From a virus (lineage: Duplodnaviria > Heunggongvirae > Uroviricota > Caudoviricetes): a DNA stretch of 43,172 nucleotides. Positions 21,444 through 40,334 of the stretch are shown here, in pieces; the stretch's first letter is position 1, and every line of letters starts with the position of its first letter. A program made the translations under genes and the position numbers. Below the pieces are notes generated by a model. It was not told where the DNA came from. It did no database searches and was given only the letters and a program-made list of their open reading frames with translations. The DNA is taken from the IMG/VR virus record IMGVR_UViG_2675903609_000006. One strand, 5' to 3'.

Positions 21444-23177
21444 TTAAAGCGAGCGGATCCCATAGGACTCAATGTGGTCAGACAGCGTGTCTTCTTTCTC
21501 GTACAGCATGGCTCTGCCAACCGCCATAATCAGCGCAACTGCACCATCGATTTTGTTTTCCGCCTGCTCTTTGACGGGCTTCACTAAATCATCGTTACCT
21601 GGCATGTTTTTGCCGACCACATTGCCGATACACCAGGTCATGATGGGATTGCCGTCATGATGAAAGCGTCCCGATTCAATCGCTGCCTCCAGCTCTTTCA
21701 TCGGGTCGGACATATTGGCGAAGTTCTGGACGATAGTAACGGGATTCAGGTCTTCATCAGCAAGGTCATGTGACAGCCCGGTCGCTCCGAAAGGGTCGAT
21801 GGGTGACTCACTGACCGGGCTGATTTTGTTCGCCGCTTTGGCCTCTTCGAGGATGTAGCGATAATCCACCTCTGCACCATCGGTAACGGTCAGAACGCCC
21901 ATTTCCACCCATTTCTGAAAGCGTTCGGCTGTCCGGCGATCTTCATTTTTCTCGACGCTATACACCGTGTCATACGGTACCCAGAAACGCGGGGCCACAC
22001 TGTAGTAATGCGTTTTACCGTCAATCTCGCGGGTATAAAGTCGCGCCATGCTGTTCATATCCAGCTTACGCGCCAGGTCAAAGGCCAGAATGCACGGCTG
22101 CCCCTCGAACTGCTCAAGAGTCAGTGATTTATCCTCGCAGCTCTGCCAGCTCACCAGGTTGAAATACGCCGAACGCGCCGACACCCAGATATTGAGGTGT
22201 TTTGTTTTAAAGACGTTTGCCAGACGGGCGTTATTTTTCGCACGCTGCTGCTGACTTAACAAAAATTCGCGATAAACCGACACGCCAATATTTGGATTGG
22301 CTTTTTCCAGCACCTGCGGGTCGGTCCAGTCGTCACCTTCATCAACGGTATAGATGATCCCGAACAGTTCATCGTTAGGCACCGAGCCGTTGAGCATCTC
22401 GATGACTTCCCGCCGTTTGTCGTAGCACGGCCCCTCAATGTTGTACCCGGCGGTGGTGATGGCCCACATCAGTGGCTGACGTCGCGCCCCCATCCCGGTA
22501 AGCATTGTGGTATAAAGCGCATCGGTGGCATGCTCGTGATATTCATCAACCACGGCACAGTGGGGTGATGAACCATCACCTGGGTTGCCGATCAGCGGTT
22601 CAAACCGCGCGCCATCCTCCGGACGGTTCATGTTTGAGGCGTTAACCTCAATCCCGAACGCTTCCGTCAGCATGGGTGTGCGTTTACACATCAGTCGCGC
22701 CGGGCGAAAGACTTCCCACGCCTGTTTCTCTGTCGTGGCACCGGAATACACTTCCGCGCCAAACTCGTTATCACAGGCAAAACAATACAGGGCAACACCG
22801 GCAGAGATTGCTGATTTGCCGTTCTTACGGGGGATTTCGGTGTACACCTCCCGGAAGCGGCGCAACCGGGTGCCTTTATTGACCCAGCCAAACGCACAGC
22901 AGATCACAAATAGCTGCCACGGCTCCAGCGTGATGGGCATCCGTTTGAATGCCCACTCCCCCTTGGTGTGCGGCAACAGCTGAATAAATTTCGCGGCCCG
23001 TTCAGCCAGGTCCTTGTCGAAGCGGTAACGAAACGACTTACTTTTTTCCGCCATCAGGTCATCAAGATGGCGCTGGCAGGCCTGAATCACAAACTGGCAG
23101 GCAACAATCTTTCCGCGCACGACATCCCGGGCATACTGATTTGCAGCATTTACGTTGGGGTAAGATTTCCGGCTCAT
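21444..23177 (-). CDS. Terminase large subunit
   Basis: 577 aa, ATPase plus nuclease architecture. Confidence 0.9.
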
Positions 23178-23677
23178 GATTCGATAATTTTCAGAAACGG
23201 GTTAGTGGCTTTCTTCTGCCCCGCCAGGCCAATCAGACGCTGGCGGCTGCTGGGGTCGAGTCCGAGCATTGCCCCCGTACTGCTCATCTCGGACTCCTGT
23301 TCTTTTTTGGCGGTCAGCTCCGGATTTTTGACCATGCCGCCCATTGCACCGGTGATGGTGTTGCCCTGTCTGGCAATATTTTTCACGGCACGTCGCCAGA
23401 ACTCATAGGCCACGCACCACCGCTCAAGCACTGCGAGGTCAGTCACGCACAGCAGGCCCTGACCGCAGAGTTCTTTGGTTGTCAGTTGCCACATGATCGT
23501 GGCGAGAGGGAGCTCTTCTTCAGCGAACCACTCCGGTGGCTCAACACCTTTGATGGGCGTAAAAACGGGTTCATCTTTGTTCAGGGCTCGCTTGCCGGGG
23601 TTTCCGGCCAGCGCCTTGCGCGCCGTTGGCTTGGGGCGACGCCCGGAACGCCCCGCCGTTCCAGCCATATGCGGCAC
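23174..23677 (-). CDS. Terminase small subunit (P27 family)
   Basis: 167 aa directly upstream of the large terminase with a 4-nt overlap. Confidence 0.75.
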
Positions 23678-23793
23678 TCCTGGTTAAATTTCATTTTTCG
23701 CGGGTATAAAAAAACGATGGGGCGGGCAGTCCGGAAGACGTCAGGTCACAGGGATTTGACCCGCCCCTCCCCTCTGGCAGTGGGAACTGGTTC
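23678..23793. other. Candidate cos / packaging initiation region
   Basis: Non-coding gap between HNH and the small terminase with a GC-rich inverted repeat GGGGCGGGC ... GCCCGCCCC; placement by analogy with HK97-like phages. Confidence 0.25.
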
Positions 23794-24144
23794 TTACTTC
23801 AGCCATTCACGGGCCGTCTTCGCCTTATGACACGGCCAACACAGGCTCTGTAGATTACTGTCGGCATCAGTGCCGCCACGCGCTTTAGGGATGATGTGGT
23901 CAACGGTTTTCGCCTCACGCACCACACCAGCACGCAGACATAACTGACACAGGCCTTTGTCACGCTTCAGGACACGCGCGCGGATACAGTCCCACTTCGA
24001 ACCGTAGCCGCGCTGATGACGGGACTGGCCTGGCTTGTATTGCTTCCAGCCTTCGCTTTTGTGGCTTTCGCAATAGCCTGACGAGTCAGTGGTGGTATGG
24101 GAGCAGCCGCGAACACGGCAGGCTTTTGGGGTTCGTGGGGGCAT
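23794..24144 (-). CDS. HNH endonuclease (terminase-associated)
   Basis: 116 aa with Cys-rich zinc finger and HNH motif (DHIIP...N...LCWPCH). Confidence 0.85.
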   Translation of the reverse strand: MPPRTPKACRVRGCSHTTTDSSGYCESHKSEGWKQYKPGQSRHQRGYGSKWDCIRARVLKRDKGLCQLCLRAGVVREAKTVDHIIPKARGGTDADSNLQSLCWPCHKAKTAREWLK

Positions 24145-24238
24145 ATGTACTCCAATGAAGAAACCAGCGAAATAGCTGCCTTCATTCGTAGTAAACCTTT
24201 TTCATCAACGCAGTAATGGATTCTTTGAAGAGTCGCAA

Positions 24239-24318
24239 TCAATACGACTCACTAATGGGGAGGCATGTCCAACGCGTTGGACGAGTTGCCTACTTGATTT
24301 AGGTGACACTTTAGAAGG
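24239..24318 (+). promoter_or_regulatory. T7-promoter-like (24239-24263) and SP6-promoter-like (24297-24318) motifs flanking a CCAACGCGTTGG palindrome; function unproven
   Basis: AATACGACTCACTA (24241-24254) is an exact 14-mer of the T7 promoter core. ATTTAGGTGACACTTTAGAAG matches the SP6 promoter 18-mer at 17 of 18 positions. Confidence 0.5.
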
Positions 24319-24365
24319 ACAGAATGCCTTCCTCACTCAAATAACATCAATTAAGGAGGTTCAAC

Positions 24366-24488
24366 ATGCTTCGTTCCAAAAGTCAGTTGACTGTAATTAT
24401 TACTACGTCACCTTATGCCGAAGACCTTTTCCGCTTCACTTTGAGCCTGATTCACTTCTACCTGACCGGCTCGCCTCTATCCTTCTGA
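24366..24488 (+). CDS. Small ORF (40 aa) behind a consensus Shine-Dalgarno, antisense to the late operon
   Basis: TAAGGAGGT (24352-24360) sits 5 nt before the ATG; the ORF overlaps the 3' end of the o-spanin gene on the other strand. Confidence 0.25.
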   Translation: MLRSKSQLTVIITTSPYAEDLFRFTLSLIHFYLTGSPLSF

Positions 24489-24711
24489 TCCCCGCTTTAT
24501 CCAGATTGCACTGCCCTAGCGCCGACAACAGACTGACATTCAAATCTAGGCTACCCGCATAAGTCAGCGGTTCAGAAATGGCTGGTTGCGGGGTTTCAGC
24601 GGTCAGACTCGCCGGTAACGGTATAGCCGGAACTGGCACGTAAACTGTCCGCGAACTTTCGCAACCGGTCAGCAGCGGCAGCAGGCACAGGGCGTACAGC
24701 ACAATCATCAT
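24436..24711 (-). CDS. o-spanin (Rz1-like outer-membrane lipoprotein)
   Basis: Alternate frame overlapping the Rz 3' end; lipobox LLTGC followed by a Pro-rich segment. Confidence 0.5.
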   Translation of the reverse strand: MMIVLYALCLLPLLTGCESSRTVYVPVPAIPLPASLTAETPQPAISEPLTYAGSLDLNVSLLSALGQCNLDKAGIRRIEASRSGRSESGSK

Positions 24712-24988
24712 CCGCAACAGCCACTTTGATATCAGCCTGGGTTCTCTGTGACTCCAGTGCGATCTGTTGTTTTGCATGCTGGTTAGCCTCCAGAACTGTA
24801 TTGACGATTTGTAGTGATTGCAGGACGTTATTGGTAATGGCTGTTGCTGATTCAGCATTTCGTACAGCCTCATCAGCACGTTTCTTTTCGTGCTGATATT
24901 TGCTGTAGTAGTGGTTAGCAGACCAGATGAAAGAACCGATGACAGTAAAGAAGAATGCAGAGATAGCCAGCTTATAGCTCAACTTCAT
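24596..24988 (-). CDS. i-spanin (Rz-like)
   Basis: 130 aa with N-terminal TM helix and coiled-coil periplasmic domain, immediately after the endolysin. Confidence 0.7.
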   Translation of the reverse strand: MKLSYKLAISAFFFTVIGSFIWSANHYYSKYQHEKKRADEAVRNAESATAITNNVLQSLQIVNTVLEANQHAKQQIALESQRTQADIKVAVADDDCAVRPVPAAAADRLRKFADSLRASSGYTVTGESDR

Positions 24989-25448
24989 TTACCACCCCAC
25001 CAGCCTCTTTAAACCGGGAAATCAGGTCACCGATTTTATGTTCATACTGACCGTAACCTGCACCAGGTAACGACGCCCAGATATTGCTGCAACGATCGAT
25101 AGCCTGACGAATATCGCCGCGATCAATCATCGGTAAAGCGCCACGCTCTTTAATCTGCTGCAATGCCACAGCGTCCTGGCTTTTCGGAGAGAAGTCTTTC
25201 AGGCCAAGCTGCTTGCGATAGGCATCCCACCAACGGGAAAGAAGCTGGTAACGTCCGGCGGCTGTTGATTTGAGTTTTGGGTTTAGCGTGACAAGTTTGC
25301 GAGGGTGATCAGAGTAATCAGTAAACAGTTCGCCGCCAACAATAACATCATAACCGTGGTTACGTGTCGGTTGTCGCCCGTTATCCGTTCCTTCTGACCA
25401 TGCCACCATATCGAGGAAAGCTATACGCTGGGAATTTAGTACCTGCAT
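24972..25448 (-). CDS. R: Endolysin (lambda R-type lytic transglycosylase)
   Basis: 158 aa matching recalled lambda R over most of its length (FLDM.AWSEGTDNGRQ.TRNHGYDVIVGGELFTDYSDHPRKLVTLNPKLKST...). Confidence 0.9.
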   Translation of the reverse strand: MQVLNSQRIAFLDMVAWSEGTDNGRQPTRNHGYDVIVGGELFTDYSDHPRKLVTLNPKLKSTAAGRYQLLSRWWDAYRKQLGLKDFSPKSQDAVALQQIKERGALPMIDRGDIRQAIDRCSNIWASLPGAGYGQYEHKIGDLISRFKEAGGVVNEVEL

Positions 25449-25451
25449 AAA

Positions 25452-25778
25452 TTACTCCTTAGAGCCACCAAACTTATTACCGATTACTCGCATTGCAGCC
25501 CCACGAATAGCATCAACACCGATCAGCCCCACACCACCACCAATGGCAACAGATAGTGATTTAGGCCATCCGACATACTCAAGAGCGGATGCAAAAGTCA
25601 GCGTCAGAGCGCCACAGAGTAGAATTTCGAGTGTTTTTCGCTTCCAGCCGCCACCACCGCCAAAATAGGCAATACGTAAACCAACCATAACAATCGACAT
25701 AATCACTGCGCCCAGCGGTGTGTCTCCACGCCACCAGCTCTGGAACAACTCCAGCCAAGTATTTGGGTTATGAGGCAT
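25452..25778 (-). CDS. Holin (putative, three TM segments)
   Basis: 108 aa, three hydrophobic helices, immediately upstream of the endolysin. Confidence 0.6.
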   Translation of the reverse strand: MPHNPNTWLELFQSWWRGDTPLGAVIMSIVMVGLRIAYFGGGGGWKRKTLEILLCGALTLTFASALEYVGWPKSLSVAIGGGVGLIGVDAIRGAAMRVIGNKFGGSKE

Positions 25779-25921
25779 TTGTAGTTATCTCTCACCTCGC
25801 CAATACAGGAGGTGCCAATTGAGGGAATACCACGTACCGCACATCAGAAGCGGAAACGTCAAAGAAGCCGAGTCAATGGATAAATGTGGGATAGACCAGG
25901 ACCAACGAATCCCCAGCCCAA

Positions 25922-25952
25922 GAAACGACAAAACCCGCTCGACGGCGGGTTT
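25922..25952 (-). terminator. tR'-like terminator upstream of the lysis cassette
   Basis: Hairpin AAACCCGC-TCGACG-GCGGGTTT followed on the minus strand by a T-rich tract. Confidence 0.45.
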
Positions 25953-26042
25953 AAGCTGTGTGGCGAAGTAACCACTCTTAACACAGTAATCTAGAAAATG
26001 CGGACCGCGTTAGTGATTTTTTCAACTTTTTGATTTATCTTA

Positions 26043-26070
26043 TTGAACACAAGAAACCACTGCCTATAAA
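26043..26070 (+). promoter_or_regulatory. Sigma70-like promoter for the Q-lysis cargo module
   Basis: TTGAAC (26043-26048), 16-nt spacer, TATAAA (26065-26070); an AAGGA ribosome-binding site precedes the ATG at 26140. Confidence 0.4.
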
Positions 26071-26139
26071 TCATATCAACCCAAACCATAAAAACCAAAA
26101 AATCAAATGATTACATTAACTAGATAAGGAACAAAGTTA

Positions 26140-27225
26140 ATGAAAGAAAGCCGCAGCAAGGTCATTCAATATAAACGTGCAGTCATCCCTAATTGCACAG
26201 CAACGCTTCAACAGATCATAGAATCTATAATTTCTGAAAATGGCGCAGCCTATAAAGTTAGCGCAAGAAGAGAACAGATTAACCCCTCCGATAGCAATAG
26301 TGGATTTAGAGTGGTTAACCGCAGCAGCACTTTCAAGACAGTGTTATTCGGGCAACTTATTTTGTTTGAACAAGGTAAAAGCCAAACACTTATGACAATC
26401 GCTGATGATGTCAATTATTATGACATCAATGCTATAACATCGAAGCAAATTAAATTAGCCGAAGACGAAAAAATAAGTGAAGCTGAAAAACAAAAAATAA
26501 CACGAGAATTTATTGATTCAATACTTTACTTTGGGATTCGTGATAATCATGTGATGATCGTCCAATCACCGGCTCTAAGGACTAAAGACATAGAAAGCCA
26601 TCTTAATTGGTTAATCCATTCATTTAGCACTATTTTTAATGGTGACGACTTCCTTGTACTTCAAGATAAACCAACTGAAGACACCATAAAAAAAATGCAT
26701 GAAAGTCCAGTCAAGAAAATAAATTTCGGCAGTATCCCAATCAAAAATTCTGATTCTGAAGATGTAGTTAAAATAAATAATATAAGTAACACAAACGACC
26801 TCCCCACAACAATAAAAGAACAGGTCGAAAAAGTTAAGAAAATAAAATTCATGCCAACTGGTAAAGGTGGCGATATTATAAAAGCTGCTTTTGGCGAAGC
26901 ATGGTTTAATAATTTACAACTGGAAGATTCTCTTGATGAATCCAATTTACAAGTTAATCTAGAAATAACCTATTTCCGCAAGACAAACAAAGATGGTCAA
27001 CGTGTACTCGATACTTTAGCAACTTCACTCAGAAATATAGACGATGAAGATATTAGTATAAACCTTCAAGGTGGTGGCATAATTAAAGGCAGTGATTTAA
27101 AACTATCCGGTAAAGTAAACGTCCAATATAACAATGGACTTATTGATGAAAATGATTTATATTTACAAATGCACAAATGGCTGACTTCAAAGGTTCAAAC
27201 TGGAGAAGTAAAAGTTAAAAACTAG
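26140..27225 (+). CDS. Hypothetical soluble protein (361 aa), first gene of the Q-lysis cargo module
   Basis: Long AT-rich ORF on the strand opposite to flanking phage genes; Lys/Asn/Asp/Glu-rich; no family recognised. Confidence 0.7.
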   Translation: MKESRSKVIQYKRAVIPNCTATLQQIIESIISENGAAYKVSARREQINPSDSNSGFRVVNRSSTFKTVLFGQLILFEQGKSQTLMTIADDVNYYDINAITSKQIKLAEDEKISEAEKQKITREFIDSILYFGIRDNHVMIVQSPALRTKDIESHLNWLIHSFSTIFNGDDFLVLQDKPTEDTIKKMHESPVKKINFGSIPIKNSDSEDVVKINNISNTNDLPTTIKEQVEKVKKIKFMPTGKGGDIIKAAFGEAWFNNLQLEDSLDESNLQVNLEITYFRKTNKDGQRVLDTLATSLRNIDDEDISINLQGGGIIKGSDLKLSGKVNVQYNNGLIDENDLYLQMHKWLTSKVQTGEVKVKN

Positions 27226-27563
27226 AACCAACAGGAGGCGGAAATGAGCTTCTTTAAATTTATTATAAGATTCTTATCCGCCTTCGCTTTTGGGTTTGCA
27301 ATATTTTACTTTGCATCTAGAAAAATTGACTTAAGTGGCATATCTACTCCATGGTCATTAATAACCTTATTAGCATTCCCTTTCAGTTATTGTATCGCAG
27401 CCTTTTTTAAAGTTTCTGAAGCCGACGAAAACACATCACTATCAGATAATGAACTAAGAAGATTACGACCGATAATTGATGCAAAAAAAAGACATCTTGG
27501 ATTTCTTATCTTTTTTTATCTTATTGCTGCTTTTTCAGGAGCAATTGGGGTAATGACTCCAAC

Positions 27564-28067
27564 TTATTGATAGTGTTTTATGTTCAGATAATGCCCGATG
27601 ACTTTGTCATGCAGCTCCACCGATTTTGAGAACGACAGCGACTTCCGTCCCAGCCGTGCCAGGTGCTGCCTCAGATTTAGGTTATGCCGCTCAATTCGCT
27701 GCGTATATCGCTTGCTGATTACGTGCAGCTTTCCCTTCAGGCGGGATTCATACAGCGGCCAGCCATCCGTCATCCATATCACCACGTCAAAGGGTGACAG
27801 CAGGCTCATAAGACGCCCCAGCGTCGCCATAGTGCGTTCACCGAATACGTGCGCAACAACCGTCTTCCGGAGACTGTCATACGCGTAAAACAGCCAGCGC
27901 TGGCGCGATTTAGCCCCGACATAGCCCCACTGTTCGTCCATTTCCGCGCAGACGATGACGTCACTGCCCGGCTGTATGCGCGAGGTTACCGACTGCGGCC
28001 TGAGTTTTTTAAGTGACGTAAAATCGTGTTGAGGCCAACGCCCATAATGCGGGCTGTTGCCCGGCAT
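27564..28067 (-). CDS. insB: IS1 transposase InsB
   Basis: 167-aa product recognised as IS1 InsB. Confidence 0.9.
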
Positions 28068-28261
28068 CCAACGCCATTCATGGCCATATCAATGATTTTC
28101 TGGTGCGTACCGGGTTGAGAAGCGGTGTAAGTGAACTGCAGTTGCCATGTTTTACGGCAGTGAGAGCAGAGATAGCGCTGATGTCCGGCGGTGCTTTTGC
28201 CGTTACGCACCACCCCGTCAGTAGCTGAACAGGAGGGACAGCTGATAGAAACAGAAGCCAC
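27986..28261 (-). CDS. insA: IS1 InsA
   Basis: 91-aa product recognised as IS1 InsA ([32 protein letters not shown]...). Confidence 0.9.
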
Positions 28262-28516
28262 TGGAGCACCTCAAAAACACCATCATACACTAAATCAGTA
28301 AGTTGGCAGCATCACCAGCAATTGGTATGTTCGCTATTTCCAGAGAGTCGATAGTTTATCTATATTTTATATCTGCTTGTGGAGGAGGCATTGCTGCTGC
28401 AATGTATTCTTTTTTCTTTATCAGCTCAATAAACAGCGAAATACAGAGATTTAAAAGCATCTTATTACACAGAGCTGAAGCGAATAAAAAAACGAAAGAA
28501 TTTATAGACTCATTAA

Positions 28517-28548
28517 ACAAAAAGGCGGATTGAAATCCGCCTTTTTGT
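28517..28548. terminator. Bidirectional rho-independent terminator shared by Q and the cargo module
   Basis: Hairpin AAAAGGCGGAT-TGAA-ATCCGCCTTTT flanked by A-runs and T-runs, between convergent stops at 28533 and 28554. Confidence 0.6.
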
Positions 28549-28553
28549 TTTCT

Positions 28554-28931
28554 TCAATCCATTTCTAATCTAATATCCAACATTGAAAGACAACCTTCGA
28601 TAAATCCTTCAGCCATTTTAATCTCAATGCGTATAAGTTTCTCGTCCTTTTTCTTTTCTTTAGCAATTTTTCTCTTAGAAAGACCATACAAATAATGTGC
28701 TACTAGTAACGAATGCTCATAAGGTTTTTTCTTCTTCAGCCGAGCAAGGCACCCCTCAATGATTAATCCGTCGGCATCAGTACATGAGAGTCTGTTTTTA
28801 CCTGTTTGTGGTAAAAGCCCTTTAAATCCTGCTGCGATTGGAGAATAGTCAACGCCTGAATTATCACTAGCAGCCCATCCCCCCCAACGCTCAAGAACCA
28901 TCTGAATATCACGCATCAAATTTCTCCACAA
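28554..28931 (-). CDS. Late-gene antiterminator Q (QuuD-like)
   Basis: 125 aa resembling recalled E. coli DLP12 QuuD (MRDIQMVLERWG.WAA...IAAGFKGL...ARLKK...ALDIRLEMD). Confidence 0.75.
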   Translation of the reverse strand: MWRNLMRDIQMVLERWGGWAASDNSGVDYSPIAAGFKGLLPQTGKNRLSCTDADGLIIEGCLARLKKKKPYEHSLLVAHYLYGLSKRKIAKEKKKDEKLIRIEIKMAEGFIEGCLSMLDIRLEMD

Positions 28932-28933
28932 AA

Positions 28934-29929
28934 TCAGGCCAGCACGCCAGTTGCCAGCGCACGATCGATAAAACGAAATATCAGCTCCAGCTGAGAGCCA
29001 TACTTCTCTTCAAATGCCACGGTATCCGCATGCAGCTCGTCGTGATGCTTTCTGCACAAAGGCAACACAAAGAGGTCATGCGCTTTTGTACCCATTCCCC
29101 CCTGACCGTGGCCTATCAGGTGGTGGGGATCATCAGCAGGTTTTCCACAACATGCGCACGGCTGCGTCTTAACCCAACGCGTGTACTTTTCGTTAACCCA
29201 GCGGCGACGTTTTGGGCGTAACATAAAAGAGTCCGGCGACTCCGGATCCACTTTCAGCGCCAGCACCTTTTTTGCCTTATCCTGGATGATGCTGGTGGCA
29301 GGAACCGAAGGCACAAGGTCACTTTCCCGGGTGACAGACGGCACAACAGGCTTTGGTAATCTCAGTGCCTTACGGGCTGCACTTTCCGGTAAGGCATCCG
29401 CCAGGTCATTACGAACCAGCCACCAGCACAGTTCCGGCATTGTCACAACGTGACTATCATCAAAACCGAGATCCCGACGCACAACAGACAACACCCAGCG
29501 GGCACAGTTATCCGTTGCCATTGATTCCAGCCGTTCCGTGAACTGATCGCGCAGCTGGTTATCGCAGTGCCAGCACAGACGGATTGCGCCCGGAGCGTGT
29601 CGCATTGTGGTCATGTTCTCGCTGTGCCAGTCGGAATGAGGCCACTGGCAGCCTTTTTCACGAAGTAACCAGCTTTCAAGACATTCCACGCCACCAGCAC
29701 GACGGATCACTGCCTCATTGCGGAACACGGCCCGAACGGCAGGATCATCCGCCAGCGGTTGTGATGCCGCCGGAACGGCACCGCTGGCGAAAGATGAATA
29801 ACGTTCCGGCTCAGGCTCCAGCAGGACACGCCCCTGCATAAACAGGGGCATCAGCTCTGAACCAGGTCTGAACAATACGATCACCATACGCGGGGCAATT
29901 TCAGGGGTCAGTAGTGCTCTCACAGTCAC
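28934..29929 (-). CDS. DUF968-family phage protein
   Basis: 331 aa with C-terminal Cys/His-rich motif (CACCGKPADDPHHL...LPLCRKHHDELH). Confidence 0.55.
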   Translation of the reverse strand: MTVRALLTPEIAPRMVIVLFRPGSELMPLFMQGRVLLEPEPERYSSFASGAVPAASQPLADDPAVRAVFRNEAVIRRAGGVECLESWLLREKGCQWPHSDWHSENMTTMRHAPGAIRLCWHCDNQLRDQFTERLESMATDNCARWVLSVVRRDLGFDDSHVVTMPELCWWLVRNDLADALPESAARKALRLPKPVVPSVTRESDLVPSVPATSIIQDKAKKVLALKVDPESPDSFMLRPKRRRWVNEKYTRWVKTQPCACCGKPADDPHHLIGHGQGGMGTKAHDLFVLPLCRKHHDELHADTVAFEEKYGSQLELIFRFIDRALATGVLA

Positions 29930-29930
29930 C

Positions 29931-30758
29931 TCAATGAACGGTATCGAGCAGCTTTAACAGCTCAGGGAATCGGGATTCGAAGAAATGCGGCTGCGTCTCG
30001 CGCGGATTTGCGGGACTGGTGATGTTCTTGCCGAACATGCAGCCTTTCGCTGTCAGCGACCAGAATTTTTTGATGTTGTTAATCGAGGTACGGCTGTATC
30101 GTTCGCGCTGCTCGACGATCCCCAGCTTCACCATCTGGTGATATGCCTGATTAGCCGTCAGGCGGATACCATACTGCTTCAGCAGTGCACTCAGCGACAG
30201 CGTAGGGCGGCTTGAACCATCTGGCGCATCAGCAGGTGCATCAATGGCATAGATCGGCATAAGTTCAGGAAGACCAGCTACCTTTGATAATTTCTGGTAT
30301 GCACCAAGTTTCGAGGAGTTTGACAGATTTAGAGTCTTTGCTGCTGATTCAAGCAGAATGACCCCGGATTTAATTTTGTCGGATGTGGTTTCTTCTGGTG
30401 ATGAATTATGAAGCGCATCAAAAGTACGTATCACTTTTAAGCTGAATGCCGGGCTGATCCACATTGCATATGCATAGACCAGCTCTTTACAGACATACGT
30501 CCCACCATTGCGCCCCTGAATGGTGATGACAGGAATACTACGGGAATCTCCCGTAGTTTCTTCTTCCAATAATTCCACAAGAGCCTTCGTTTCAGGACGA
30601 CGCATAAACTCGTGAACTTCCAGCGAACGGGAGGAGCGATTCTCACCAGCGGCAAGAAGAGCAGCTTTCTGAAGGTCGTTAAGACAGTAGTTAGATTCGA
30701 AGTACTGGCGCACAGAAACGCCATCAATTACAAGCAACTGATTCATTGGTTTCTCCAC
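29931..30758 (-). CDS. KilA-N domain protein
   Basis: N-terminal KilA-N signature (GGTYVCKELVYAYAMWISPAF). Confidence 0.65.
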   Translation of the reverse strand: MEKPMNQLLVIDGVSVRQYFESNYCLNDLQKAALLAAGENRSSRSLEVHEFMRRPETKALVELLEEETTGDSRSIPVITIQGRNGGTYVCKELVYAYAMWISPAFSLKVIRTFDALHNSSPEETTSDKIKSGVILLESAAKTLNLSNSSKLGAYQKLSKVAGLPELMPIYAIDAPADAPDGSSRPTLSLSALLKQYGIRLTANQAYHQMVKLGIVEQRERYSRTSINNIKKFWSLTAKGCMFGKNITSPANPRETQPHFFESRFPELLKLLDTVH

Positions 30759-30908
30759 AAATTTTTATCCACGAGCGGGACTGCACTCCCTTTTCGTTGA
30801 TGCAGGATGAACTTACTGCGATTTTTAATAGTTATCAAGGATATACTGTTCATAAATACAGTATCTTTAACGAGGTAATACCCAAATTTAGGGTGTTGCT
30901 CAATTCCG

Positions 30909-31304
30909 TTACCGAGTTGCTAATTTGCAACTCGCTTTTTCGTACTTACTGATAGTGATCTCGACCTTCCCCTCCGGGATAACCGGTCCCCACTCCACCA
31001 GCATTCTTTTCACCTGACTGTCGTCTTCCCACACACCCGCGTGGGTCAGGGCGTCAAACAGCGCCTTGTTATAGTTGTCCAGATCGCGGATCCGGTTATC
31101 CGGAGGAAACAAAACGATCTCCACTGAAGCAGGTGCCGACGTTGGTTTCGGCAGACGACGTAACTGCTCAACTATTGCTGCGCACGCCGCGCTCTGGAAT
31201 TTTCACCCCGCCGCGCTTATCAGGCTCTTACCAGCAAACGCCCCTTTGTTGGGGTGTCGCCAGTACGTGTTCACGCTGGGCGGAAAAGGAAGGATCGGCT
31301 TCAT
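30909..31304 (-). pseudogene. rusA: RusA-like Holliday junction resolvase with in-frame TGA
   Basis: ATG at 31304 encodes MKPILPFPPSVNTYWRHPNKG..., then a TGA at 31203-31205; the same frame continues into the ORF-track ORF 30909-31124 (RDLDN...FDALT...WEDDSQV). Confidence 0.55.
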
Positions 31305-31627
31305 ACTTTCAGGCCCCTCTCATGTAACCAGTGGGCTGCACGCAGCCTGGCGTTTTCCTCACCGGCAAGCAGTGAGCGGATAATCCCGACCGCCTCGCTG
31401 TCGTCGTCCTTCACCACGGTATGAAGCGTGATCCCCCGGGCCACACCACGCTTTATCGTGATGACGCCTTTTTTCTCCAGTGCGCGAAGATGCTCCACCG
31501 CTGCATTCACCGAACGGTATCCCAGCATGGTTGCCACCTCCTGATTGGTTGGCGGGAAGCCACGTTCTTTCTGATAAGAAATCAGCATATCCAGCACCTG
31601 CTGCTGGCATTGAGTTAACGTCGTCAT
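31301..31627 (-). CDS. LexA-type winged-helix DNA-binding protein without a peptidase domain
   Basis: GFPPTNQEVATMLGYRSVNAAVEHLRALEKKGVITIKRGVARGI resembles the LexA N-terminal domain; start taken at the internal Met overlapping the upstream stop. Confidence 0.5.
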   Translation of the reverse strand: MTTLTQCQQQVLDMLISYQKERGFPPTNQEVATMLGYRSVNAAVEHLRALEKKGVITIKRGVARGITLHTVVKDDDSEAVGIIRSLLAGEENARLRAAHWLHERGLKV

Positions 31628-32121
31628 TACGCCCCCACGTAATTCCCTGACAGATACCACTCATCACTCGATACAGCGCGCTTGCTGCTTTTCCGTAAAC
31701 ACTGCTCACGACGCGCCAGAAAATTGTTTCGTTCTGGCTGGGAGTGGCTTTCACGGAATGCCGCCATCCACACCGTTGCAGCACGACGGTATAAGCCCCT
31801 GGACTCCAGTTCTTCAGCCTGGCGGGTCAGGCACAAAATCTCCCGCGGGTCGTTAGTGCCGACATAGAAATTGCGCACAGGTCTGGTTTCACGAACTGGT
31901 TGCGGTTCCGCCTCCTGCGCTCTCTCAGTCAGGCGCGGGAAATGTCTGCGTGTATCCCCTTCACAACGGTGAGCCACACGCCCACTCTGACGTAACTTGC
32001 TTGCTGACTGCAGAACGCGCTGCCGTGAGTAACCTGCAAAAGCATCCGCAATGTCTCCGGAAGTACACCCCGGATGGGCTTCAATGTATTTCTGAACTTC
32101 ATTCAAAAGACTCATGATCAC
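31627..32121 (-). CDS. PerC-like regulator (putative)
   Basis: C-terminal motif LESRGLYRRAATVWMAAF resembles the recalled PerC-family signature. Confidence 0.4.
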   Translation of the reverse strand: MIMSLLNEVQKYIEAHPGCTSGDIADAFAGYSRQRVLQSASKLRQSGRVAHRCEGDTRRHFPRLTERAQEAEPQPVRETRPVRNFYVGTNDPREILCLTRQAEELESRGLYRRAATVWMAAFRESHSQPERNNFLARREQCLRKSSKRAVSSDEWYLSGNYVGA

Positions 32122-33059
32122 CCCCTGAATCCTGCCGGGATCTGGCTGTAGTCCACGTTGTCGTAACTGGCTTTGAAGTACGGGTCTTCGCGTTTTTCTG
32201 TGTACGTGCTGACGGACGGCGATAAGCGCAGGGAAAGCTCATCCCATTTTTCCCGCAGCTTCGACGGGCTGAGCACGTTACGGCACCAGAACGGATCGCG
32301 GCTGACGCGGCTGTACATCTCGCAGATTTGTTTGTGAGTACGACCATCCTGCACACACATCAGGCGAATTTCGTTTGCCCAGGCTGTCCAGTTCGGTTCT
32401 TTGGGACGAACCACCTCGCCGTCACATTCGGCGGCCTGCTCGTACAGGGCGATGATTTTTTTCCAGAGCCACTGTGCGCAGGTCAAATCATCCTGCGTTC
32501 CCCACTGGCGCTTTTTAGGGCTGAATACAACCGCATCAGGATGGCGAGTTAAAAACTCCTGTTCAGCCGTCTGCGTGTCCGGTTGCGAAGCGTCCGGACG
32601 AGAAGTTTTTTTATCTGACGGATCATGTTTTGATTTTACTGACGGATCCCCGCCAGATTCTGACGGGTGAAAACCCGCTTTTTTGCCAGATTTCGACGCA
32701 TCAAATTTTGACGGGTCAGATTTTGATGCGTCAGATTTTGACGGGTCAGAATCTGACAGTTGAGAAAATGCCGCTGCCTGAAGCTTCGCAACGTTAAGCT
32801 GATAAACATTCGACGCATTGCGGTTACCCTGGCGACGCGCCTTACGCGTTAACCAGCCTTCTGCTTCCAGCCGTGCGATAGCCGTTCTGACGGTACTCAT
32901 CCCCGCGCCAATCTGACGGGCAATGGTTTCAATTGATGGCCAGCACACACCTTCGTCATTACTGAAATCAGCCAGGCGGGCCATAATTGCCACGCTGGAT
33001 AATTTCATGCCTGACGCTGCGCAACCATCCCATACATAGCCGGTTAATTTAGTGCTCAT
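32118..33059 (-). CDS. Replication initiator (O-like) with internal origin iterons
   Basis: N-terminal HTH, a central repetitive linker (SDSDPSKSDASKSDPSKFDASKSG) encoded by the iteron array, and a C-terminal domain. Confidence 0.6.
   Translation of the reverse strand: MSTKLTGYVWDGCAASGMKLSSVAIMARLADFSNDEGVCWPSIETIARQIGAGMSTVRTAIARLEAEGWLTRKARRQGNRNASNVYQLNVAKLQAAAFSQLSDSDPSKSDASKSDPSKFDASKSGKKAGFHPSESGGDPSVKSKHDPSDKKTSRPDASQPDTQTAEQEFLTRHPDAVVFSPKKRQWGTQDDLTCAQWLWKKIIALYEQAAECDGEVVRPKEPNWTAWANEIRLMCVQDGRTHKQICEMYSRVSRDPFWCRNVLSPSKLREKWDELSLRLSPSVSTYTEKREDPYFKASYDNVDYSQIPAGFRG
32611..32762. repeat. Iteron array (about eight ~15-bp direct repeats, consensus AGATTTTGACGGGTC) - candidate replication origin
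   Basis: Four contiguous 15-bp units at 32703-32762 plus degenerate copies upstream, all inside the initiator gene. Confidence 0.6.
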
Positions 33060-33998: not shown

Positions 33999-34199
33999 CT
34001 AATCTTTCGGATAGATATCCGGTCTTAAGTCAGATTTCGTAATTGCACCTGACGTGCATTGCTCAAGTTTTTTAGCCAGCACAAAACTGGCTTTTTTATA
34101 GCCATTGAAAACCAGCCGTAAGTAGCCAGGTGTTGAGCCAACTTTTCCGGCCAACTCGCCCTGCTGTTCTTTGGTTAAAGAGTCCCAATACGCTTTCAT
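33999..34199 (-). CDS. cro: Cro-like repressor (Cro/YdaS-type HTH)
   Basis: Divergent from the repressor gene; start taken at MKAYWDS because the ORF-track start overlaps an operator. Confidence 0.7.
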   Translation of the reverse strand: MKAYWDSLTKEQQGELAGKVGSTPGYLRLVFNGYKKASFVLAKKLEQCTSGAITKSDLRPDIYPKD

Positions 34200-34204
34200 A
34201 CAAT

Positions 34205-34274
34205 ATGTACCTCCGGTGTACATATTACATGATTAAAATGAACCTTCAAGATACTTGTACCTTAACGGTACAAG
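34205..34274. promoter_or_regulatory. Divergent immunity promoter region with two palindromic operators
   Basis: ATGTAC-CTCCGGT-GTACAT (34205-34223) and CTTGTACC-TTAA-CGGTACAAG (34254-34274) between cro and the repressor gene. Confidence 0.55.
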
Positions 34275-34289
34275 GGTTTTAATTTCGTT

Positions 34290-34964
34290 ATGAAAACAAT
34301 CCATGACATCCGGCGGTCTAACGCCAGAAAACTGAGAGATGGTGTTGGCGGGAATTCTTCCTTTGCCACTATGATTGATCGCGAGCCAACCCAGACCAGC
34401 AGGTTTATGGGAGATGGTGCTACTAAAAATATCGGTGACAGCATGGCACGACACATCGAAAAATGTTTCGACCTGCCTGTTGGATGGCTCGATCAAGAAC
34501 ACCAGACAACGAACATCACAAAAAAACCTGATGTTTCAATCACTAATAAACAAATCACATTAGTCCCTGTCATATCATGGGTACAGGCCGGAGCATGGAA
34601 AGAAGTTGGATATTCTGAGGTTGATTTGAGCACAGCAGAAACGTATCCCTGCCCTGTACCCTGTGGGGAAATGACTTATATCTTGCGGGTGATAGGTGAT
34701 TCAATGATTGATGAGTACCGCCCGGGAGACATGATTTTTGTCGATCCTGAAGTACCAGCCTGCCACGGTGACGACGTTATTGCATTGATGCACGATACAG
34801 GTGAAACCACCTTCAAAAGGTTGATAGAAGATGGGACACAGCGTTATCTCAAAGCGTTAAACCCAAACTGGCCTGAGCCTTACATTAAGATCAACGGTAA
34901 TTGCTCTATAATTGGAACTGTGATTTTCTCAGGAAAACCAAGAAGATACAAAATCAAAGCCTAA
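34290..34964 (+). CDS. cI: CI-type repressor with S24 (LexA-like) autopeptidase domain
   Basis: C-terminal domain with VIGDSM nucleophile and downstream Lys (FKRL), similar to recalled P22 C2. Confidence 0.85.
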   Translation: MKTIHDIRRSNARKLRDGVGGNSSFATMIDREPTQTSRFMGDGATKNIGDSMARHIEKCFDLPVGWLDQEHQTTNITKKPDVSITNKQITLVPVISWVQAGAWKEVGYSEVDLSTAETYPCPVPCGEMTYILRVIGDSMIDEYRPGDMIFVDPEVPACHGDDVIALMHDTGETTFKRLIEDGTQRYLKALNPNWPEPYIKINGNCSIIGTVIFSGKPRRYKIKA

Positions 34965-35003: not shown

Positions 35004-35031
35004 TTGACAATGTACCCATGAGATACATAAT
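35004..35031 (+). promoter_or_regulatory. Near-consensus sigma70 promoter (pL-like candidate)
   Basis: TTGACA (35004-35009), 16-nt spacer, CATAAT (35026-35031); two ATGTACCC direct repeats overlap the spacer and the start region. Confidence 0.5.
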
Positions 35032-35120: not shown

Positions 35121-35153
35121 AAGCGCCCTACAGGACGCTTAGCTCTTTAACAA
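35121..35153 (+). promoter_or_regulatory. Hairpin plus boxA-like motif (candidate antitermination element)
   Basis: AAGCGCC-CTACA-GGACGCTT hairpin, then GCTCTTTAACAA (35142-35153), which matches the recalled rrn boxA. Confidence 0.4.
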
Positions 35154-35198: not shown

Positions 35199-35405
35199 AT
35201 GCACAAAACAGAACCCAAAATCGTCGCGCCCGGATACACAAATGAGGAAATTTACGAGTGGATGGCAAAGAAGCTGGCAGCTATAAACCAGCTTCGTGAA
35301 GTGCTGTCTTATCGACAGGAAACAATAGACTCCTTAAAAAAACTGGATCAGGAAATCACGGTTTTATCACAGGATGTTACTTTAGATATTGTGCAGACAA
35401 ATTAG
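35199..35405 (+). CDS. Hypothetical protein (68 aa)
   Basis: ATG preceded by GAGGAGG; helical, coiled-coil-like product; not Arg-rich. Confidence 0.4.
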   Translation: MHKTEPKIVAPGYTNEEIYEWMAKKLAAINQLREVLSYRQETIDSLKKLDQEITVLSQDVTLDIVQTN

Positions 35406-35811
35406 GATCCCATTCATTTTCGTCAAAATCATCAAAGTGATGAATTTGTGATCTCCAGTCTCGATAATCTAAAAATTTCTGGGCGGTTACGCTTATTTTA
35501 TCAAGTGTGAGTTCATCCTGAATTGAAAGAAGAAGTTCATCAAATTTCATCTCATTAATCTGTTTTGGCATCCAGTGATGCTTCATCAGAATAAGGTGAA
35601 CCAGAGCCTTTTTCCCATTCAACTGATTATAGGGAGTGCCGAATTTCTTCCGGTGCTCATGTAAGACAAGGTCCAGAAGAGTAAGTAATGTTGCCCTTGA
35701 TTCCACTTTGCTTATTTCGACTGATGACACTACCCCACTGATTTCAATGCCCCGATACTTTCCAACATTTTCACAGTGGGATTTGTACAGCGTGTAGATA
35801 TTACCGGACAT
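35377..35811 (-). CDS. Hypothetical protein (144 aa), AT-rich cargo gene
   Basis: Convergent with and overlapping the 68-aa ORF by 29 nt; markedly lower GC than flanks; no family recognised. Confidence 0.5.
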   Translation of the reverse strand: MSGNIYTLYKSHCENVGKYRGIEISGVVSSVEISKVESRATLLTLLDLVLHEHRKKFGTPYNQLNGKKALVHLILMKHHWMPKQINEMKFDELLLSIQDELTLDKISVTAQKFLDYRDWRSQIHHFDDFDENEWDPNLSAQYLK

Positions 35812-36140
35812 TTCTTTTCCTTTTGCGTTGTTGGGGATAACCAGATTAACCGAATCCTTGTTGTTGGGGAATAACCAGGTCCACCTCGCCTGATGTGGCT
35901 AAAAGCAGGCACATAACAGCTAAGTATTTTTAACCAGAGAGAATCCTTAGCGTTGTGGTGAATGCGGCTCAGCGCACGCGGGTTAAGGTTGAGGCTGACA
36001 GTCGACCTTCTGTGGATACCCACCCGTCTGGTGTGCAACCTTCGCCAGGCACCGGGAGGCACCCGGCACCACAACTTTATGCTGTGTGTAGTCCTGGAGG
36101 TACCAGTTTGTACCCTTGCTTCCGGCTGGTACCGTCCTTT

Positions 36141-36240
36141 TTACAAAACAGAGAAGAGCATCACCGGACGACGGGCTCATAACCCAATCCATCCGGGCGG
36201 CTGCCACCGCAGGTGTTCTTCTCTGTTTTGTGGAGAAACT
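36141..36240 (+). other. Long inverted repeat (~17-bp arms, ~60-nt spacer) in a non-coding gap
   Basis: ACAAAACAGAGAAGAGCA (36143-36160) pairs with TGTTCTTCTCTGTTTTGT (36223-36240), one mismatch. Confidence 0.5.
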
Positions 36241-36279
36241 AATCGGCCTTGCAGGGTCGATATGATGAGGAGCAGCAAA

Positions 36280-36642
36280 ATGGCTAGCGAACGCAGTACT
36301 GATGTGCAGGCATTTATCGGGGAGCTGGACGGCGGCGTATTTGAAACCAAAATCGGCGCAGTTCTCAGTGAAGTCGCTTCCGGTGTGATGAACACGAAAA
36401 CCAAAGGTAAGGTCTCACTCAACCTGGAAATCGAACCATTTGATGAGAACCGTGTGAAAATCAAACACAAACTCTCATATGTTCGCCCGACTAACCGCGG
36501 GAAAATTTCCGAAGAAGACACCACCGAAACGCCGATGTATGTCAATCGCGGTGGTCGCCTGACTATTCTGCAGGAAGACCAGGGACAGTTACTGACTCTT
36601 GCCGGTGAACCTGACGGAAAACTCCGCGCAGCAGGTCGTTAA
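36280..36642 (+). CDS. Hypothetical early protein (YfdP-like)
   Basis: Start taken at MASERSTD with upstream GAGGAG; the ORF-track ORF extends further upstream through non-coding-looking sequence. Confidence 0.5.
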   Translation: MASERSTDVQAFIGELDGGVFETKIGAVLSEVASGVMNTKTKGKVSLNLEIEPFDENRVKIKHKLSYVRPTNRGKISEEDTTETPMYVNRGGRLTILQEDQGQLLTLAGEPDGKLRAAGR

Positions 36643-38854: not shown

Positions 38855-39204
38855 TGGAGCCATACAGCCTCACACTCGATGAGGCCTGTCATTTTCTCAA
38901 GATATCCAGACCGACTGCCATTAACTGGATACGCACAGGGCGTCTTCAGGCAACACGCAAAGATCCCACTAAGAATAAATCTCCTTACCTCACAACACGA
39001 CAAGCCTGCATTGCGGCTCTTCAGTCTCCGCTGCATACTGTCCAGGTGAGCGCGGGTGATGGCATAACAGAGGAAAGAAAATGTCACTCTTCCGCAGAGG
39101 TGAAATATGGTACGCCAGTTTCACATTGCCGAACGGTAAAAGATTTAAACAGTCTCTTGGAACAAAGGACAAAAGGCAGGCGACAGAACTCCATGACAAG
39201 CTAA
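38854..39204 (+). CDS. Excisionase-like HTH protein (3' end uncertain)
   Basis: ATG at 38854 preceded by AAGAGG; N-terminal HTH-like segment; frame overlaps the int start by ~120 nt. Confidence 0.4.
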
Positions 39205-40244
39205 AGGCTGAAGCATGGCGGGTCAGCAAACTTGGTGAAATACCTGATATAACGTTCGAGGAAGCGTGTGTCAGGTGGCTTGAAGAGAAAGCACATAAAA
39301 AATCACTGGACGATGACAAAAGCCGGATCGGATTCTGGCTTCAACATTTCGCAGGAATACAACTAAGAGACATTACTGAATCAAAAATTTATTCAGCAAT
39401 GCAGAAAATGACGAACCGGCGTCATGAGGAAAACTGGAAACTCAGGGCAGAATCATGCAGAAAAAAAGGGAAACCTGTTCCAGAATACACGCCAAAACCA
39501 GCGTCCGTTGCAACGAAGGCTACGCATCTTTCATTTATAAAGGCCCTACTAAGAGCCGCAGAGCGTGAATGGAAAATGCTGGATAAGGCACCAATTATTA
39601 AAGTGCCTCAACCAAAGAATAAACGGATCCGCTGGCTGGAGCCCCATGAAGCACAAAGGCTGATTGATGAATGTCCGGAGCCATTAAAGTCTGTTGTTGA
39701 ATTTGCACTGGCAACAGGCTTAAGACGCTCGAACATCATCAACCTTGAATGGCAACAAATAGATATGCAGCGCCGGGTGGCATGGATAAACCCGGAAGAG
39801 AGTAAATCAAACCGCGCAATTGGCGTTGCGCTGAATGATACTGCATGTCGCGTATTGAAAAAACAAATCGGGAATCATCACCGTTGGGTATTTGTGTACA
39901 AGGAAAGCTGTACCAAACCAGACGGAACGAAAGCGCCAACAGTAAGGAAGATGCGGTATGACGCAAACACAGCCTGGAAAGCGGCGCTGAGACGGGCTGG
40001 TATTGATGATTTCAGATTTCACGACTTGAGACACACCTGGGCAAGTTGGCTGGTTCAAGCCGGAGTCCCGTTGTCAGTTTTACAGGAAATGGGAGGCTGG
40101 GAGTCTATCGAAATGGTTCGTCGATATGCTCACCTTGCACCTAATCACCTTACCGAACACGCACGGCAAATAGACTCGATCCTGAACCCATCGGTCCCAA
40201 ATTTGTCCCAGTCAAAAAATAAGGAAGGTACTAATGATGTGTAA
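39081..40244 (+). CDS. int: Tyrosine integrase (site-specific recombinase)
   Basis: 387 aa with catalytic motifs ([24 protein letters not shown]...RYAH); ends 15 nt before the tRNA. Confidence 0.9.
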
Positions 40245-40258
40245 CTTATTGATTTTAA

Positions 40259-40304
40259 TGGTGCCGATAATAGGAGTCGAACCTACGACCTTCGCATTAC
40301 GAAT
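40259..40304. repeat. Proximal attachment-site core (3' 46 nt of the tRNA)
   Basis: Identical to 433-478. Confidence 0.8.
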
Positions 40305-40334
40305 GCGCTGCTCTACCAACTGAGCTATATCGGC
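40259..40334 (-). tRNA. thrW: tRNA-Thr (anticodon CGT) - integration target
   Basis: Reverse complement reads GCCGATATAGCTCAGTTGGTAGAGCAGCGCATTCGTAATGCGAAGGTCGTAGGTTCGACTCCTATTATCGGCACCA (76 nt, CCA end at 40259). Confidence 0.9.

Follow-up and report, generated by a model that had tools for sequence, protein, structure and literature searches.

The stretch of DNA considered here (IMG/VR record IMGVR_UViG_2675903609_000006; 43,172 nucleotides (nt), referred to below as the window) is a lambdoid prophage of the SfIV/SfV type, and our subject is its segment 35812-36279, the gap between an AT-rich cargo gene and yfdP, the first early gene. We regard it as about an even bet (a probability of roughly 0.5) that this gap is the template of an untranslated, multi-domain early-left leader RNA of some 400 nt, transcribed from the plus strand and terminated into a small RNA (sRNA) of the STnc100 type. 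With Shigella phage SfIV the region shares 99.8% identity, and it is found, as a whole or in part, in 2,781 of 5,426 complete Escherichia coli genomes; the similarity of phages SfV and SfII to the window begins at 35881 (query position 70).

An earlier note on this DNA, made from its letters alone, had described a GC-rich non-coding gap between the AT-rich gene and the first early gene and had taken the long frame opened there for non-coding sequence, and on both counts it was right. The GC content is 0.53-0.57 in the gap and 0.35-0.44 in the cargo gene, and yfdP starts with an ATG at 36280 on the plus strand, the equivalent position being used in RefSeq. Open reading frames (ORFs) of 226 amino acids (aa) on the plus strand and 114 aa on the minus strand run across the gap; the longer one (35962-36642) is yfdP with a spurious 5' extension, since the homologous leaders vary by insertions and deletions (indels) of many different lengths. 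Exactly over the structured modules described below (M1, T1 and M2), PGAP/RefSeq places a pseudogene annotated as a frameshifted hypothetical protein (window 35955-36265; locus L163 of our comparison, 1644-1954), and the GenBank entry of SfIV has two overlapping hypothetical coding sequences there (SfIV_34 and SfIV_35); these annotations look like artefacts laid over a structured RNA.

The largest element of the gap, M1, went unnoticed in the earlier note; it is an STnc100-like junction RNA of about 125 nt (35952-36075, plus strand), supported by an Rfam match, by covariation and by a pseudoknot. In a permissive Rfam scan STnc100 (RF02076) was the sole meaningful match (35922-36144, plus strand, 38.4 bits, E=2e-6), and it extends over the full length of the model (positions 1-206); the other relatives of the M1 subtype detected by the scan reach 35.1-41.9 bits against the same model. 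Conversely, R1, a covariance model built from sequences of the M1 subtype only, matches a bona fide STnc100 (153.8 bits; phage Stx2a_1447, 75 nt after stx2B) with 37.2 bits and E=4e-10. Homologues of the M1 core occur in ST64B, 118970_sal3, the Cronobacter phage phiES15, the P1-like SJ46 and many IMG/VR prophages. All helices lie on the plus strand: the closing stem P1 (GTTGTGGTG/CACCACAAC, 35952-35960 with 36067-36075) shows exchanges of T:A for C:G, P2 (35980-35983 with 36022-36025) and P4 (36026-36031 with 36045-36050) show compensatory changes, and P1a (35964-35966 with 35973-35975) and P5 (36052-36056 with 36062-36066) are invariant. In an alignment of 17 distinct homologues, 94.7% of the cells are paired and 23 cells are changed on both sides, a level of pairing reached by none of 500 shuffles.

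To these helices a pseudoknot is added, in which AAGGTTG (35985-35991) pairs with CAACCTT in the loop of P4 (36036-36042). At least eight different complementary versions of it occur; those found elsewhere include AAGGCTG/CAGCCTT, TGGTTAT/ATAACCA, TGGTTAG/CTAACCA, TGGTTAA/TTAACCA, GGCAAA/TTTGCC, GGCCAG/CTGGCC and TTGCGG/CCGCAA, and in the bona fide STnc100 it reads GGTGTC/GACACC, as taken from the R1 alignment. A run of at least seven Watson-Crick pairs arose in 2.7% of shuffles used as a control. The pseudoknot is family-wide, and it is not marked in the consensus structure line of STnc100 in Rfam.

The full-length Rfam match, the reciprocal match of R1 and the shared covarying pseudoknot together place M1 in the STnc100 family; judged by its sequence, it is a divergent subtype of STnc100/PasD/EcOnc27. 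Like these RNAs it has internal hairpins and a closing stem with the invariant motifs TGGTGAAT and CACCGGGAGGCACCCGGCACCA on its flanks, both exact in M1 (35957-35963 and 36050-36071), and with STnc100 it further shares the pairing of a loop with an internal strand, a 3' intrinsic terminator and a prophage location. Its 5' hairpin and its middle domain differ in sequence. Experiments have established STnc100/EcOnc27 and PasD as Hfq-bound prophage sRNAs (PMC12711010; PMC4104026; bioRxiv 10.64898/2026.05.13.724894). PasB was also considered as the identity of the M1 RNA and ruled out, as it sits among structural genes. Phage Stx2a_1447 has two members of the family: its early-left leader contains an M1 variant (L129, 3344-3493) and its late operon the bona fide STnc100 (L164, 4684-4899).

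M1 is followed by a single-stranded linker, TGCTGTGTGTAGTC (36080-36093, plus strand), which is kept after M1 of types A, B and D, after the unrelated module of the phiNP type and in loci L143, L144, L157 and L159. It may be the seed of an sRNA or the U-rich flank of an Hfq module; no cis target for it stood above chance in the window. Next to it lies T1, an intrinsic terminator (36096-36142, plus strand), in which a stem with GGTACC motifs (GGAGGTACCAG...CTGGTACCGTCC) is followed by TTTTT (36138-36142). Its inverted-repeat arms, GGTACCAG and CTGGTACC, contain one GGTACC each, its hairpin energy is -18.5 kcal/mol with five U after the stem, and in the alignment with the STnc100 model the GGTACC hairpin falls on the terminator. 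In every lambdoid context a hairpin with a U-run stands about 45-85 nt after M1, and 38 of 47 distinct contexts downstream of M1 score as terminators. The stem is built from at least three unrelated sequences (the GGTACC type; GTCGGCGTC/GACGCCGAC in ST64B; CCCGC/GCGGG in phiES15), so that stems unrelated between phage groups go together with a U-run that is kept, a pattern that marks a terminator under selection. The two GGTACC motifs had earlier been likened to operator half-sites, the second correctly placed at 36128-36133 and the first one nucleotide too early (it lies at 36099-36104, not 36098-36103); they are the two arms of one terminator hairpin and do not fit the operator pattern of this phage, TGTAC-N7-GTACA.

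Between T1 and yfdP extends M2 (36138-36236, plus strand), a long stem of 20-25 base pairs (bp) with a perfect core of 20 bp (36143-36162 with 36212-36231), which may extend over the U-tract of T1 and GGAGA, and a branched tip (CCGGA.../...TCCGG, GGG/CCC, GCGG/CCGC) formed by two small hairpins on a 5-bp stem. A repeat search returned arms of 25 nt (36143-36167 and 36207-36231; 84% complementary, 39 nt apart), and the RNA of 107 nt folds with -51.2 kcal/mol (z = -7.06), none of 200 shuffles folding as well. This is the inverted repeat that had drawn attention to the locus; it is real and stronger than described, and the internal pairing noted in its spacer exists as the two hairpins of the tip, while its 3' arm, given as 36223-36240, had been misplaced by about 9 nt.

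Comparison of the leaders of yfdP homologues, with one genome per species, shows that the part from T1 to yfdP is kept across Enterobacterales, in Mangrovibacter, Enterobacter, Atlantibacter, Leclercia, Kosakonia, Phytobacter, Scandinavium and Pseudocitrobacter. In Providencia it is simplified, the long stem being kept and the branched tip gone, which suggests that the duplex itself is the constrained feature. Thirteen leaders from different genera share a consensus fold of 40 pairs in which 96.5% of the cells are paired and nine pairs are changed on both sides; none of 500 shuffles reached this pairing, and slid controls were about 45-50% paired. The G-U pairs of M2 occur in the plus sense only, which points to an RNA made from the plus strand. 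Conservation of pairing across homologues had been named as the check on the earlier proposal, and with the 17 homologues of M1 and the 13 leaders of M2 the option of a structured RNA holds. The companion option, a terminator or attenuator, is right for the gap, which contains T1, and wrong for the inverted repeat to which it had been attached: the 3' arm of M2 runs into a conserved GTGGAGAAAC, with no U-run there in other genera, and its stem is kept by compensatory changes. M2 as a terminator was accordingly rejected, the U-run in the window belonging to the stem; T1 combines a GC-rich hairpin, an immediate U-run and conservation in homologues, and M2 does not. No Rfam family matches M2, which was seen only together with yfdP. 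With at least 20 bp (about two turns) of near-perfect duplex in an untranslated leader it has the form of an RNase III stem, and by analogy it is most likely a processing site of the RNase III type, with control of translation and stability as a further or alternative role.

The leader closes with M3, a small hairpin predicted in the consensus fold (CGGCC...GGGTCG, 36244-36259, plus strand), which abuts the Shine-Dalgarno sequence of yfdP (GAGGAG, 36267-36272). Its equivalent in other genera is CGGCGG...CCGCCG, with a compensatory change in one pair. In all genera compared yfdP keeps its own Shine-Dalgarno sequence and its start at 36280. A small ORF from a GTG at 36231 was considered and rejected, its frame and length being unconserved.

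Upstream of M1 the sequence common to other phages starts with a conserved segment termed PK0 (CCACCTCGCCTGATGTGGCTAAAAGCAGGCACATAAC, 35881-35917, plus strand), which recurs before the corresponding elements of Mangrovibacter, Cronobacter and Kosakonia prophages. Its strands might pair as a pseudoknot, with CCAC/GTGG and GCCTG/CAGGC as the two helices; no covariation was seen among the equivalent segments compared. The inverted repeat that follows forms the hairpin P0 (or M0; GCTAAGTATT...AATCCTTAGC, 35919-35951, plus strand), whose equivalents are different in sequence and still complementary: GATAAGAGTT/AACTCTTATC in ST64B, GGTAAGAGCATT/AGTGCTCTTTCC in L117 and L144, and ATGAAGCGCATT/AATGCGCTTCAT in phiES15. 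A boxA-like TGCTCTT before M1 in relatives was rejected as such, being the 3' strand of this covarying helix. Still further upstream, between the start of the cargo gene and the conserved leader, a tandem direct repeat with a spacing of 34 nt (GTTGTTGGGGA(A)TAACCAG, 35826-35885) may be the promoter region of the cargo gene or a duplicated leader hairpin. Along the leader (35827-36231) GU-rich strands of the GTTGTG type alternate with AC-rich ones of the CACAAC type (at 35827, 35860, 35910, 35952, 36070, 36081, 36143 and 36222), so that neighbouring modules could swap partners; CATAAC (35912-35917), for example, could compete with P1 for GTTGTG (35952-35957).

The slot bracketed by GTTGTGG...CCACAAC, which M1 occupies in the window, is modular. 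It may hold M1, a related variant (mEp460, Stx2a_1447), shorter hairpins (Kosakonia), an unrelated module (phiNP) or, in Phytobacter, a tRNA-Ile with the anticodon AAT, which stands upstream of the T1/M2/yfdP leader (L146, 2722-2800; L151, 1186-1264). P1-like phage-plasmids (SJ46 and relatives; L006, 2551-3929, as well as L093, L086 and L077) carry one or two copies of M1 within tRNA arrays, M1 lying about 33 nt upstream of tciA with no terminator, and in Buttiauxella M1 is joined directly to the M3-yfdP leader, again with no terminator. As a side observation, the C4 antisense RNA and IsrK score above their Rfam gathering values in mEp460, Stx2a_1447 and ST64B, within the rightward operon, in or beside its antirepressor gene; in 118970_sal3 only IsrK is matched, and the window shows neither (match loci: L128, 823-1011; L129, 763-951; L004, 409-597; L007, 48-124).

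The position of these modules relative to the immunity region completes the description. There, cro (33999-34223, minus strand) and the cI repressor gene (34290-34964, plus strand, followed by a terminator) flank the operator region OR. The operator pattern, the 17-bp palindrome TGTAC-N7-GTACA, was searched in the immunity region with up to two mismatches, and its only matches are at 34206, 34256, 35011 and 35031; none lies within 35812-36279, so that the left operator or similar protein-binding site once suggested for the gap finds no counterpart there. The matches at 35011 and 35031 (OL) overlap a strong promoter-like site on the plus strand, TTGACA-16-CATAAT (35004-35031; 11 of 12 in the promoter scan), which on its sequence is probably PL, the likely source of the transcripts entering the leader. 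Beside M1 the scan predicted no sigma-70-like promoter in the window, and a search just before M1 for a promoter of the sigma-54 or sigma-70 type gave nothing convincing or conserved. M1 begins about 900 nt downstream of PL, with two genes in between, a small conserved ORF of 68 aa (35199-35405, plus strand; phrog_1744) and the cargo gene (35377-35811, minus strand; phrog_5286, 'ECs1072 family'). The 3' ends of the two overlap tail to tail by 29 nt. Transcription from PL must cross the cargo gene in antisense to reach yfdP. A more compact order is found in the prophage L104, where cI, a terminator, operators with TTGACA-18-TACATT, M1, T1, M2, M3 and yfdP follow each other and only a few nt separate M1 from the predicted start of transcription before it; in some phages at least, M1 is thus the first element transcribed from PL, and a strong terminator stands before the entire early-left operon.

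About 105 nt downstream of the PL-like promoter, and outside the gap, lies the only true boxA, an exact one of the rrn type (GCTCTTTAACAA, 35142-35153, plus strand), which could be a Nus-factor loading site for a long untranslated early-left leader; the hairpin before it (35121-35140) reads as a minus-strand intrinsic terminator. A nut site of the lambda type, in which boxA goes with a boxB hairpin and an N protein with an arginine-rich motif, is not what the gap contains, and no N-like protein was recognised by family matches (searches of the Pfam/PHROG type). The early-left region of the Sakai prophage Sp5 is of the N type and has neither yfdP nor M1; the EcOnc sRNA at the homologous Sp5 site was for this reason dropped as a candidate, no comparison being possible. 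Downstream of yfdP follow yfdQ, yfdR and more genes down to the integrase gene int (39081-40244), directly after which a tRNA gene (40262-40334, minus strand, 71.8 bits) presumably marks the attachment site of the prophage. The placement of the gap upstream of the early-left operon, already proposed from the letters, agrees with this order. Searches with YfdP itself gave no Pfam hit, nothing meaningful in the PDB and, among the PHROGs, only families of unknown function.

How these parts may work together can be outlined as follows. The operon served would be yfdP-yfdQ-yfdR...xis-int, and transcripts from PL would produce M1 first, then the linker and then T1. Termination at T1 we infer to be efficient, so that most polymerases would stop there and leave an RNA whose 3' end consists of a hairpin and a U-tail. 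Such a hairpin with a U-tail is the standard 3' module of Hfq-type small RNAs. A stop at T1 would then release an RNA of the STnc100 type, which might act in trans, and the leader would serve as an sRNA gene as well, in parallel to StxS and its PR'-tR' leader. StxS is the terminated PR' leader of Stx phages acting as an Hfq-dependent sRNA (PMC7547250). Both cases would have in common that the leader of a phage operon, ended by a terminator that requires antitermination, yields a short regulatory RNA; StxS differs in that it belongs to the late operon, has a different sequence and depends on Q for read-through. Polymerases that read through T1, by whatever means, would transcribe M2 and M3 as the 5' untranslated region (UTR) of yfdP, where both could act as a processing site of the RNase III type, in the control of translation and stability, or in both. 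The lambda N leader has an RNase III-sensitive hairpin upstream of N. The lambda pL leader resembles the window in having a long duplex between the early-left control elements near the promoter and the ribosome-binding site of the first gene, and, with nutL, in having a boxA near PL (in the window the rrn-type one at 35142-35153). The window differs from it by the lack of boxB and of a recognisable N and by the conserved branched tip of M2.

Several points weigh against this account of a terminated leader. It leaves the expression of the early-left operon past T1 unexplained, and cleavage of M2 by RNase III is proposed by analogy only. M1 stays below the Rfam gathering score of STnc100 (38.4 against 47 bits), and its genomic context is a different one: STnc100 follows Q/stx in the late region and converges with an anti-sRNA, whereas M1 lies between cI and yfdP, in an early-left leader by the immunity region. 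The structure of M1 is far more elaborate, and its sequence far more invariant, than would be typical of a base-pairing sRNA. In the P1-like phages and in Buttiauxella, finally, M1 stands directly before a gene, so that there it is a 5' UTR element rather than a free-standing sRNA.

An attractive alternative would be that M1 acts in cis as an RNA-only processive antiterminator similar to put of phage HK022, the nascent RNA binding its own polymerase and carrying it through T1 and later terminators. HK022 put suppresses termination in cis by way of the zinc-binding domain of beta'. It shares with M1 that a structured RNA heads an early operon, directly before a terminator, in a lambdoid phage with no recognisable N. 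The order in L104, with M1 first in the PL transcript, a strong terminator next and no N-like gene visible between PL and yfdP, would suit such a role, as would the constant orientation of M1 with the operon downstream, the different operons it heads (yfdP, kil, tciA), the presence of family members in the early-left and late operons of one phage, the missing M1 in the N-encoding early-left region of Sp5 and the strong constraint on its fold and sequence, suggesting binding to a macromolecule. We nevertheless consider it unlikely, and with it the antitermination site suggested in the earlier note. M1 shows no detectable homology to put in sequence or structure, R1 finding nothing up to E=1 in HK022 22000-33000 (the immunity region including putL and putR); putL and putR share a short string resembling GCGGGTTCAGG with the STnc100 consensus, which we treated as chance, there being no model match. 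A pseudoknotted junction of about 125 nt also stands against two stems of about 70 nt (PMC9378689), M1 is present in a single copy in the window, with no second one in the rightward operon, and lies about 900 nt downstream of PL, and leaders of the ST64B type have a terminator-like hairpin upstream of M1 that M1 could not suppress. Moreover, its relatives STnc100 and PasD behave as trans-acting Hfq sRNAs, and the mEp phage collection is described as Nus-dependent (PMC11893012), a poor fit if this is true of mEp460, which carries the related M1 variant.

The same layout of a conserved, pseudoknotted, aptamer-like domain followed in a 5' leader by a terminator of variable sequence is also that of a classic attenuator, in which M1, as a riboswitch-like or protein-dependent sensor, would decide by its state whether T1 forms; the 5' pseudoknot strand AAGGTTG could pair with either of two ACCTT stretches (36005-36009 and 36038-36042), hinting at a conformational switch. 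This we judge improbable: inspection revealed no conserved antiterminator pairing between M1 and T1, the candidates differing between the window and ST64B, a conserved linker of about 20 nt separates P1 from T1, some copies of M1 lack a terminator altogether, and no riboswitch family in Rfam matches. Just as improbable, in our estimate, is a stable, tRNA-like RNA embedded in the operon and excised from the precursor for a role outside transcription control, for instance as a decoy or cofactor. The tRNA-Ile(AAT) of Phytobacter filling the same slot (there GTTGTGG...CCGCAAC) upstream of T1/M2/yfdP, the copies of M1 inside the tRNA arrays of P1-like phages and the way P5 immediately adjoins the 3' strand of P1, like a T-arm abutting the acceptor stem, speak for it; no tRNA or tmRNA model recognises M1, however, and signatures of D-, anticodon- or T-loops are missing, so that the likeness is architectural only. 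Far less credible are the two explanations that dispense with an RNA. The inverted repeats and GTAC-containing motifs present here speak for a left operator or for another protein-binding or recombination site working as double-stranded DNA, but TGTAC-N7-GTACA matches only at OR and OL, compensatory changes maintain the stems and G-U pairs appear in just one sense, and relatives keep the U-run with other, unrelated stems in place of the GGTACC one; we hold this to be very improbable. Slightly less probable still is a degraded protein-coding gene (the 35962-36642 frame or the PGAP pseudogene), to which the ORFs of 226 and 114 aa and the frameshifted annotation might point: the leaders differ by indels of many lengths and by exchange of whole modules, conservation follows base pairing and not codons, and yfdP has its own Shine-Dalgarno sequence and start in all genera. 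Even taken together, the DNA-site and coding explanations keep a very small share of the probability.

The region discussed here is present, at least in part, in about half of the complete E. coli genomes, yet it is left unannotated or called a frameshifted pseudogene. Its description gives the STnc100/PasD family a second context, an early-left leader beside the immunity region, adds the pseudoknot as a family-wide feature of STnc100, and introduces with M2 an undescribed conserved RNA structure upstream of yfdP that lies outside Rfam. One may ask whether RNAs of the M1 type, and by extension STnc100/PasD, constitute a second and far more widespread class of RNA-only, put-like elements that modify the polymerase at the heads of long phage operons. 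We think this improbable, a little more so than a put-like action of M1 alone; if it were true, the operons headed in this way would be the early-left and the late ones as well as P1 ban/tci, and the sRNAs recovered in Hfq pulldowns would be terminated by-products. For prophages of the SfV/ST64B type with no recognisable N, the succession of PL, M1, T1 and operon makes the expression of xis, int and the rest of the early-left genes past a terminator directly testable.

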